Of a DNA stretch of 213 nt, positions 1 through 213 are shown piece after piece (position 1 is the stretch's first letter; every line of letters begins with the position of its first letter). Source of the stretch: Escherichia coli (GTDB taxonomy: Bacteria; Pseudomonadota; Gammaproteobacteria; Enterobacterales; Enterobacteriaceae); the NCBI RefSeq assembly GCF_003334405.1, contig NZ_QOWM01000078.1. The stretch is one strand, 5' to 3'. The notes under the pieces are model-generated. The model was not told the origin of the DNA. It saw only the letters and a program-made list of their open reading frames with translations, and searched no databases. The position numbers and the translations under genes were made by a program.

Positions 1-6
1 AGAATA

Positions 7-83
7 TGGTGCATCCGGGAGGATTCGAACCTCCGACCGCTCGGTTCGTAGCCGAGTACTCTATCCAGCTGAGCTACGGATGC
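7..83 (-). tRNA. tRNA-Arg (anticodon ACG), intact, 77 nt, CCA encoded; enterobacterial argQ/argZ/argY/argV type
   Basis: Reverse complement of 7-83 reads GCATCCGTAGCTCAGCTGGATAGAGTACTCGGCTACGAACCGAGCGGTCGGAGGTTCGAATCCTCCCGGATGCACCA. It folds as a canonical cloverleaf: acceptor GCATCCG/CGGATGC, D-stem GCTC/GAGT, anticodon stem CTCGG/CCGAG with loop CTACGAA (anticodon ACG = plus 47-49 cgt), T-stem GGAGG/CCTCC with loop TTCGAAT, discriminator A, CCA at plus 7-9. I recognise it as the E. coli-type tRNA-Arg(ACG) from memory; which paralog cannot be decided from the window. Confidence 0.93.
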
Positions 84-146
84 ATCGGGAAAACTTATTC
101 TACTGCTGATATTGATACCGCTACTAAAGCCATATCAATTAAGAGA
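84..146 (-). other. 63-bp AT-rich spacer between the 5' end of the intact tRNA and the upstream tRNA 3' fragment; probable tRNA-operon spacer or leader
   Basis: About one third G+C by hand count. No structural RNA fold or long open frame. It sits exactly between the tRNA 5' end (83) and the CCA-encoding end of the fragment (147), as a spacer between tandem tRNA genes would. Confidence 0.55.
111..139. repeat. 7-bp inverted repeat ATTGATA (111-117) / TATCAAT (133-139) with 15-nt spacing inside the spacer
   Basis: Reverse complement of 133-139 (tatcaat) equals 111-117 (attgata). There is also an adjacent TGATA-T-TGATA direct duplication at 107-117. Short arms in AT-rich DNA, so chance occurrence is plausible. 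Confidence 0.3.
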
Positions 147-165
147 TGGTGCATCCGGGAGGATT
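147..165 (-). repeat. Truncated 3'-terminal 19 nt of tRNA-Arg(ACG), a direct repeat of 7-25; candidate att core of an integration junction, or a tRNA gene remnant
   Basis: Plus 147-165 (tggtgcatccgggaggatt) is identical to plus 7-25; identity is 20 nt if the matching base just past the CCA (6 vs 146) is included. On the minus strand it encodes AATCCTCCCGGATGCACCA. Identity ends at 165/166 (a at 166 vs c at 26), inside the T-loop. Upstream on the minus strand (166 onward) there is no 5' T-stem, anticodon arm or D-arm, so this is not a second functional tRNA. Confidence 0.8.
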
Positions 166-192
166 ACTCGCCTTGCGGCTCGCCCTTCGGGC

Positions 193-208
193 CGTTGCTA
201 AAGCAACG
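193..208. repeat. Perfect 6-bp inverted repeat with 4-nt loop (cgttgc-taaa-gcaacg); potential hairpin
   Basis: 193-198 cgttgc pairs with 203-208 gcaacg around loop taaa (199-202). It is not followed by a T-tract on the plus strand or an A-tract on the minus strand, so it is not a canonical intrinsic terminator. Confidence 0.4.
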
Positions 209-213
209 TTATC

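Follow-up and report, generated by a model that had tools for sequence, protein, structure and literature searches.

The tRNA-linked repeats (TLRs) were first seen by Egan & Landy in 1978, and Rudd catalogued 22 copies at ten loci of Escherichia coli K-12 in 1999, every copy having as its last 18-19 nt the 3' end of the upstream gene (PMC8144298). The arg members of the family are named raQ, raZ and raV in the supplement of a later study, whose strain table lists a delta-22-TLR strain with the entry 'argY/Z/Q, raQ/Z/V' (PMC8144298). The TLR family is described there as having 'no known function', and the phenotype originally attributed to the tyrT RtT RNA has since been retracted (PMC8144298). 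RrA, RrB and RrF, which are found downstream of the 5S rRNA genes in rrnA, rrnB and rrnD, belong to the same family, their last 18 nt being a copy of the 3' end of the upstream stable-RNA gene (PMC8144298). These three RNAs are processed and bind both Hfq and CsrA in vitro; the 19 TLRs of tRNA operons, the arg ones included, are rated at <0.01 as predicted CsrA binders (PMC8144298).

Here we analysed a stretch of 213 bases (the window, meaning the whole stretch of DNA under analysis) that carries a tRNA-Arg gene and part of such an element. The window matches E. coli K-12 MG1655 with 100% identity over its full length and corresponds, in the annotated K-12 genome, to argQ plus part of the argZ-argQ interval. 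Because of this 100% identity, we regard it as practically certain that the window comes from a housekeeping region of the E. coli chromosome, namely the argZ-argQ interval. A megablast search found a match to the window in every one of 5,426 complete E. coli genomes (5,426/5,426), always on the chromosome, at 1 to 9 places per genome; 4,179 of these genomes carry most of the window and many, MG1655 among them, are identical to it at 213/213 bases. The features of the window all lie on the minus strand. In the order of the transcribed strand, the raZ element (213 to 147) is followed by a spacer (146 to 84), the tRNA (83 to 7) and the start of the next element (6 to 1).

147 to 213, minus strand: 3' half of raZ (67 of 135 nt), recognised by a match to RtT RF00391 and by alignment with the tyrT RtT repeats; the element extends past base 213.

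147 to 165, minus strand: 19 nt that repeat the 3' end of tRNA-Arg (AATCCTCCCGGATGCACCA) and form the terminus by which a TLR is known, lying within the exact repeat 6-25 / 146-165.

84 to 146, minus strand: spacer of 63 nt, made up of the 3' trailer of raZ and the 5' leader of argQ and similar to the 62-nt argY-argZ spacer.

7 to 83, minus strand: argQ, tRNA-Arg(ACG) (tRNA-Arg2), 77 nt including an encoded CCA (9 to 7), supported by ARAGORN, Rfam RF00005 and identity to b2691.

1 to 6, minus strand: first 6 nt of raQ (TATTCT), directly after the CCA of argQ.

ARAGORN called a single gene in the window, a minus-strand tRNA-Arg at 7-83 whose anticodon is ACG. The Rfam tRNA model (RF00005; gathering score 29) matched 10-83 of the same strand over model positions 1-71 of 71, scoring 67.1 bits with E = 6.5e-15, and the encoded CCA appears as TGG at window positions 7-9 on the plus strand. 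The sequence of 7-83 is identical to argQ (b2691) of NC_000913.3. The preliminary description, made from the window sequence, had reported an intact canonical tRNA-Arg(ACG) with an encoded CCA at this position and proposed tRNA gene prediction as a check; both programs agree with it and add the minus strand, which it had left out. Its expectation of an enterobacterial host was likewise borne out, the match being to E. coli at 100% identity. Its placing of the gene 'downstream of the junction' did not hold, as this wording overlooks the minus-strand orientation of the gene. Two other Rfam matches were rejected. A Plastid-ycf2 5UTR match, seen on the strand opposite each tRNA-Arg (window 9-83, plus strand), reached 33.4 bits against a gathering score of 65.7; it is below threshold and antisense to the tRNAs, and is most likely spurious, caused by sequence in the model that resembles a tRNA. 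A mir-2814 match with E = 0.68 was also taken to be an artefact.

tRNA-Arg2 with inosine at position 34 reads CGU, CGC and CGA. E. coli tRNA-Arg2 is a substrate of TadA, and deletion of argZ, argY and argQ lowers tRNA-Arg2 by 16-fold and slows growth in LB (PMC13170351). The window tRNA can be taken as this TadA substrate since its sequence is identical to that of the E. coli gene, so that its A34 would be deaminated to inosine by TadA as established for E. coli tRNA-Arg2; the preliminary description had named tRNA-Arg(ACG) as a TadA substrate.

In K-12, argQ closes the serV-argV-argY-argZ-argQ operon, which lies directly downstream of csrA; the order is csrA, serV, argV, argY, argZ, argQ, yqaB, on a single strand throughout. 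argV, argY, argZ and argQ are identical over all 77 nt, and the K-12 array is thus intact, with four identical arg genes in tandem as the preliminary description had anticipated. The genes are separated as follows.

serV to argV: spacer of 3 nt.

argV to argY: spacer of 198 nt.

argY to argZ: spacer of 62 nt.

argZ to argQ: spacer of 198 nt.

Each interval of 198 nt consists of an element of ~135 nt, which begins directly after the tRNA CCA and ends in AATCCTCCCGGATGCACCA, and then a spacer of 63-64 nt. When the 63-nt spacer of the window is aligned with the argY-argZ spacer, 59 of 63 positions are identical. The number of arg genes at the csrA-yqaB locus differs between strains, with 2 in strain G1/2, 4 in K-12 and 5 in A34. 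A sigma-70-like site, TTGACT-16-TAATAT, is present ~60 nt upstream of serV (L001 (K-12), 3958-3931, minus strand) and could be the operon promoter. A promoter and terminator scan of the whole K-12 arg locus returned sites that were no more numerous than in shuffled sequence.

We also searched the window against phage and plasmid collections. No genuine phage carrying the window was found in the phage collection, where the sole match was a Salmonella genome scaffold (a 691-kb scaffold of Salmonella houtenae filed among phages). Matches in the plasmid search were mostly to megabase-sized records, that is, chromosomes or pieces of chromosomes filed as plasmids, and include several E. coli chromosomes of 4.8-4.9 Mb. 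A 14-kb 'plasmid' of Klebsiella pneumoniae (NZ_CP093469.1) has four matches to the arg array. In E. coli XL10-Gold (NZ_CP081008.1, 4654736-4658035), a match to the window lies amid short pseudogene fragments (RHS, ISAs1, 'hypothetical') with unrelated tRNAs flanking it and an 80-nt 'tRNA-Arg'; this patchwork locus looks like an assembly artefact rather than biology. As to coding potential, the sole open reading frame in the window encodes 29 aa (112-201, plus strand), is antisense to raZ and is without support.

Two copies of the 20-mer ATGGTGCATCCGGGAGGATT, 140 nt apart and 100% identical, are present at 6-25 and 146-165, and 19 of the 20 bases are the 3' end of tRNA-Arg. Since the sequence is that of a real gene, with 100% identity to K-12 MG1655, this 20-nt repeat is far beyond chance. 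The same element follows argV, argZ and argQ, three of the four arg genes: raZ starts at the base after the argZ CCA and raQ at the base after the argQ CCA (window 6 to 1), and all three arg TLRs open with TATTCT. Full-length raZ occupies 3147-3281 of L001 (K-12), and raQ, with 133 nt, occupies 2874-3006 of the same sequence. The tail copy is 19 nt long in raV and raZ and 18 nt long in raQ; the tail of raQ differs from the tRNA end in having CATCC instead of AATCC. In the K-12 sequence, the final 18-19 nt match the upstream tRNA in every TLR that was checked, those after lysT, lysW, lysY, lysZ, lysQ, lysV, serX (three copies found), proK, tyrT, tyrV (three copies), argV, argZ and argQ, and a core of AACGTTGC..GCAACGGCCCGAAGGGCGA is common to the arg TLRs and to the tyr, lys and pro TLRs. 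Because the K-12 TLRs obey this rule of ending in the 3' end of the upstream tRNA, the copy at 147-165 is the constant and normal 3' terminus of raZ. The longer TLRs after lysQ, lysV, serX and proK in K-12 have a terminator-like GC hairpin and a T run at their start (for example AAAAAAGCGCCCTAAAGGCGCTTTTTT), so that the TLR body at these loci lies beyond a likely terminator, as it does in the rrn TLRs; the arg TLRs are without such a hairpin at their start.

The distribution of arg-type TLRs was determined by an exact-pattern scan (CCCGAAGGG, 10-40 nt, ATCCTCCCGGATGCACCA) of one genome per species from 100,044 species. The pattern was found in 29 stretches of DNA, all from Enterobacterales, in the genera Escherichia, Salmonella, Citrobacter, Klebsiella, Enterobacter, Kosakonia, Phytobacter, Silvania, Pluralibacter, Huaxiibacter, Kluyvera, Lelliottia, Erwinia, Pantoea, Brenneria and Pectobacterium and in further Enterobacteriaceae. 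In all cases with upstream sequence available, a CCA of tRNA-Arg type precedes the element's own CCA by 123-137 nt. A full tRNA-Arg stands before the element in nearly every case with enough upstream sequence, the exception being one Pantoea copy that follows another TLR. In Pantoea ananatis, two arg-type TLRs are arranged head to tail (L023, 4996-5129 and 5130-5263), an arrangement similar to that of the three RtT repeats that follow E. coli tyrV in tandem.

For the secondary structure we used the 39 distinct arg-type TLRs from the scan of 100,044 species, which aligned well. RNAalifold predicted four local hairpins and one long-range helix for these 39 sequences, the helix being formed by an internal strand (CACC-AGGG-AGGAT) and the tRNA-derived tail (ATCC-TCCC-GG-ATG). 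Over the 39 elements, the 25 predicted pairs were paired in 97% of cells, compared with at most 52% when the partners were slid, and 7 pairs showed compensatory changes on both sides. The covariation score was 0.160 against 0.085 in shuffles, and this value was reached in none of 500 shuffles (0/500). The compensatory changes, for example GCC/GGC versus GGC/GCC and GTTGC/GCAAC versus ATCGC/GCGAT, are all in the local hairpins; covariation of the long-range helix is impossible in the arg set because its 3' strand is fixed by the search pattern. The fold of raZ as a single sequence gave z = -4.27.

The internal strand GCACCAGGGAGGAT, which is that of the raV copy and also the cross-species consensus, has the tail ATCCTCCCGGATGC as its predicted partner. 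The raZ strand, GCACTAGGGATGAT, carries two substitutions relative to that of raV, and the predicted long-range helix is weaker in raZ (-11.2 kcal/mol) than in raV (-19.8 kcal/mol). When compared with GCATCCGGGAGGTT, the 5' strand of the tRNA acceptor fused to the 5' strand of the T stem, the raV strand matches at 11 of 14 positions, that of raZ at 9/14 and that of raQ at 10/14. On this prediction, the 3' domain of the element looks like an acceptor/T-arm minihelix whose T loop would be replaced by a large insert. In an RNAduplex matrix of TLR bodies against TLR tails, pairing of the body with its own tail was best for arg, tyr and lysW and was not best for lysT, lysZ, serX and proK. Specific body-tail pairing across tRNA types is thus plausible but unproven, the matrix being only partly diagonal.

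tRNA precursors are cut to single tRNAs by the usual tRNA-processing enzymes. In the arg operon, argV, argY, argZ and argQ are co-transcribed with serV, and in the resulting precursor the internal strand of each element is predicted to pair with the tRNA-derived tail, which would close a domain of three small hairpins and leave a tRNA-like ...ACCA 3' end. Such an acceptor/T-arm-like end may be treated by the tRNA 3'-end processing machinery as that of a real tRNA, with cutting and trimming after the TLR, and the downstream spacer and tRNA would then mature normally. We infer from this arrangement that the TLR tail may serve as a mimic for tRNA 3'-end processing; RNase E cleavage after the rrn TLRs has been argued on similar lines (PMC8144298). 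The repeated units of tRNA, TLR and spacer could also be substrates for unequal recombination, by which the array would expand and contract, and the changes in array size probably arose in this way.

How the 19-nt copy at 147-165 came to lie beside an intact tRNA gene can be explained in other ways. The preliminary description had suggested that one member of the tandem array was disrupted or displaced, so that the copy would be the truncated remnant of a tRNA-Arg gene; this reading draws on the 19-nt identity of the copy to the tRNA 3' end and, further, on the internal strand of the element, which resembles the 5' strands of the tRNA acceptor and T stem at 9-11 of 14 positions. However, the K-12 array is complete with its four identical genes, the 19-mer is preceded by sequence that is not that of a tRNA and that has homologues in the RtT/TLR repeats from other tRNA operons, the element is catalogued as the TLR raZ, and its hairpins show compensatory changes. 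The same element also follows three of the four arg genes and takes the same position in many other genera, and because the arrangement is conserved across Enterobacterales a gene stump left by a recent event is refuted. A disrupted or displaced array member is therefore very unlikely; an ancient derivation of the TLRs from tRNA genes is possible, because the internal strand resembles the tRNA strands. Direct repeats of ~20 bp of a tRNA 3' end are typical of integrative elements, and the exact 20-nt repeat could on this ground be an attL/attR-type duplication left by a prophage or island integrated at the 3' end of tRNA-Arg. Only ~116-120 nt lie between the repeats, however, with no integrase or plausible coding sequence (the sole open reading frame is that of 29 aa), and this interval is a catalogued TLR. 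Together with the lack of any genuine phage match and the chromosomal matches in all 5,426 E. coli genomes, 4,179 of them with most of the window, this makes an integration origin the most improbable of the explanations, with hardly any chance of being correct. When a tRNA 3' end recurs as a short exact copy beside an enterobacterial tRNA gene, this is by itself no evidence of an integration junction or of a broken gene, because TLRs make the same pattern at ten K-12 loci.

With 147-165 taken as the normal end of raZ, the question becomes whether the element does anything. Conservation of the structure suggests, with modest support, that TLRs may be under selection; raV, raZ and raQ in particular are possibly selected because their fold has been kept, with compensatory changes, throughout Enterobacterales. 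That selection maintains them as structured RNAs with their own function and not as passive spacers, either in cis, as a processing module imitating the acceptor/T minihelix of a tRNA, or as a released small RNA, is nevertheless a tentative proposal that we consider rather unlikely to be right. Lower still, and on balance doubtful, we place the version in which raZ and its sisters are small RNAs with a role in trans once freed from the tRNA precursor, a role of the kind proposed for RrA, RrB and RrF. The conserved structure, with its compensatory changes in many genera, is consistent with such a role, as are the processing of these rrn relatives and their binding to Hfq and CsrA in vitro (PMC8144298), and the arg operon is directly downstream of csrA. 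On the other side stand the values of <0.01 for the 19 tRNA-operon TLRs as predicted CsrA binders, the 'no known function' given for TLRs, the retraction of the first phenotype claimed for the tyrT RtT RNA and the listing of a delta-22-TLR strain (PMC8144298), as well as the helix-weakening substitutions that raZ itself carries.

The tRNA, the TLR membership and the array of the window are thus already known, and the element is a member of a catalogued family. The window is of little import in itself, being made of a textbook tRNA gene and of a repeat family known since 1978 and catalogued in 1999. Compared with argQ of the serV-argVYZQ operon, window 7-83 has the same sequence with no difference. 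What the window shares with att sites in tRNA genes is a tRNA 3' end repeated directly and exactly over a short length. It differs from such sites in lacking mobile DNA, an integrase and presence/absence polymorphism between strains, and in having a conserved, structured spacer of ~120 nt between the repeats.

The element is closer to the RtT RNA (rttR) of the tyrT-tyrV operon, with which it shares a homologous 3' half composed of the AACGTTGC hairpin, GGCCCGAAGGGCGA, a short GC hairpin and a tail derived from a tRNA 3' end. Direct alignment of the arg TLR with the tyrT-tyrV repeats of K-12 shows that AACGTTGC-loop-GCAACGGCCCGAAGGGCGA and the short GC hairpin are common to both, whereas the last ~13 nt differ, being the end of tRNA-Tyr in the tyr repeats and that of tRNA-Arg in the arg repeats. 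The arg element also belongs to another operon, is shorter than the RtT RNA (135 versus 178 nt) and has a divergent 5' half. In terms of Rfam scores, RF00391, with a gathering score of 45, gave a truncated hit of 46.4 bits to window 147-213 on the minus strand, whereas the complete arg elements reached 31.0 (raZ) and 29.2 bits, below the same gathering score. At gathering stringency, Rfam reported tRNAs only and no RtT over the whole K-12 arg locus; to see the RtT relation, one has to use E-value thresholds or search the truncated window. An RtT RNA belongs to the tyrT operon and ends as tRNA-Tyr, whereas raZ lies in the arg operon and has a tRNA-Arg tail. raZ is therefore a relative of Rfam RtT and not a clean member of it. 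RrA, RrB and RrF, which share with raZ the copy of the upstream gene's 3' end, differ from the arg TLRs in that they sit between two terminators after the 5S rRNA (PMC8144298).
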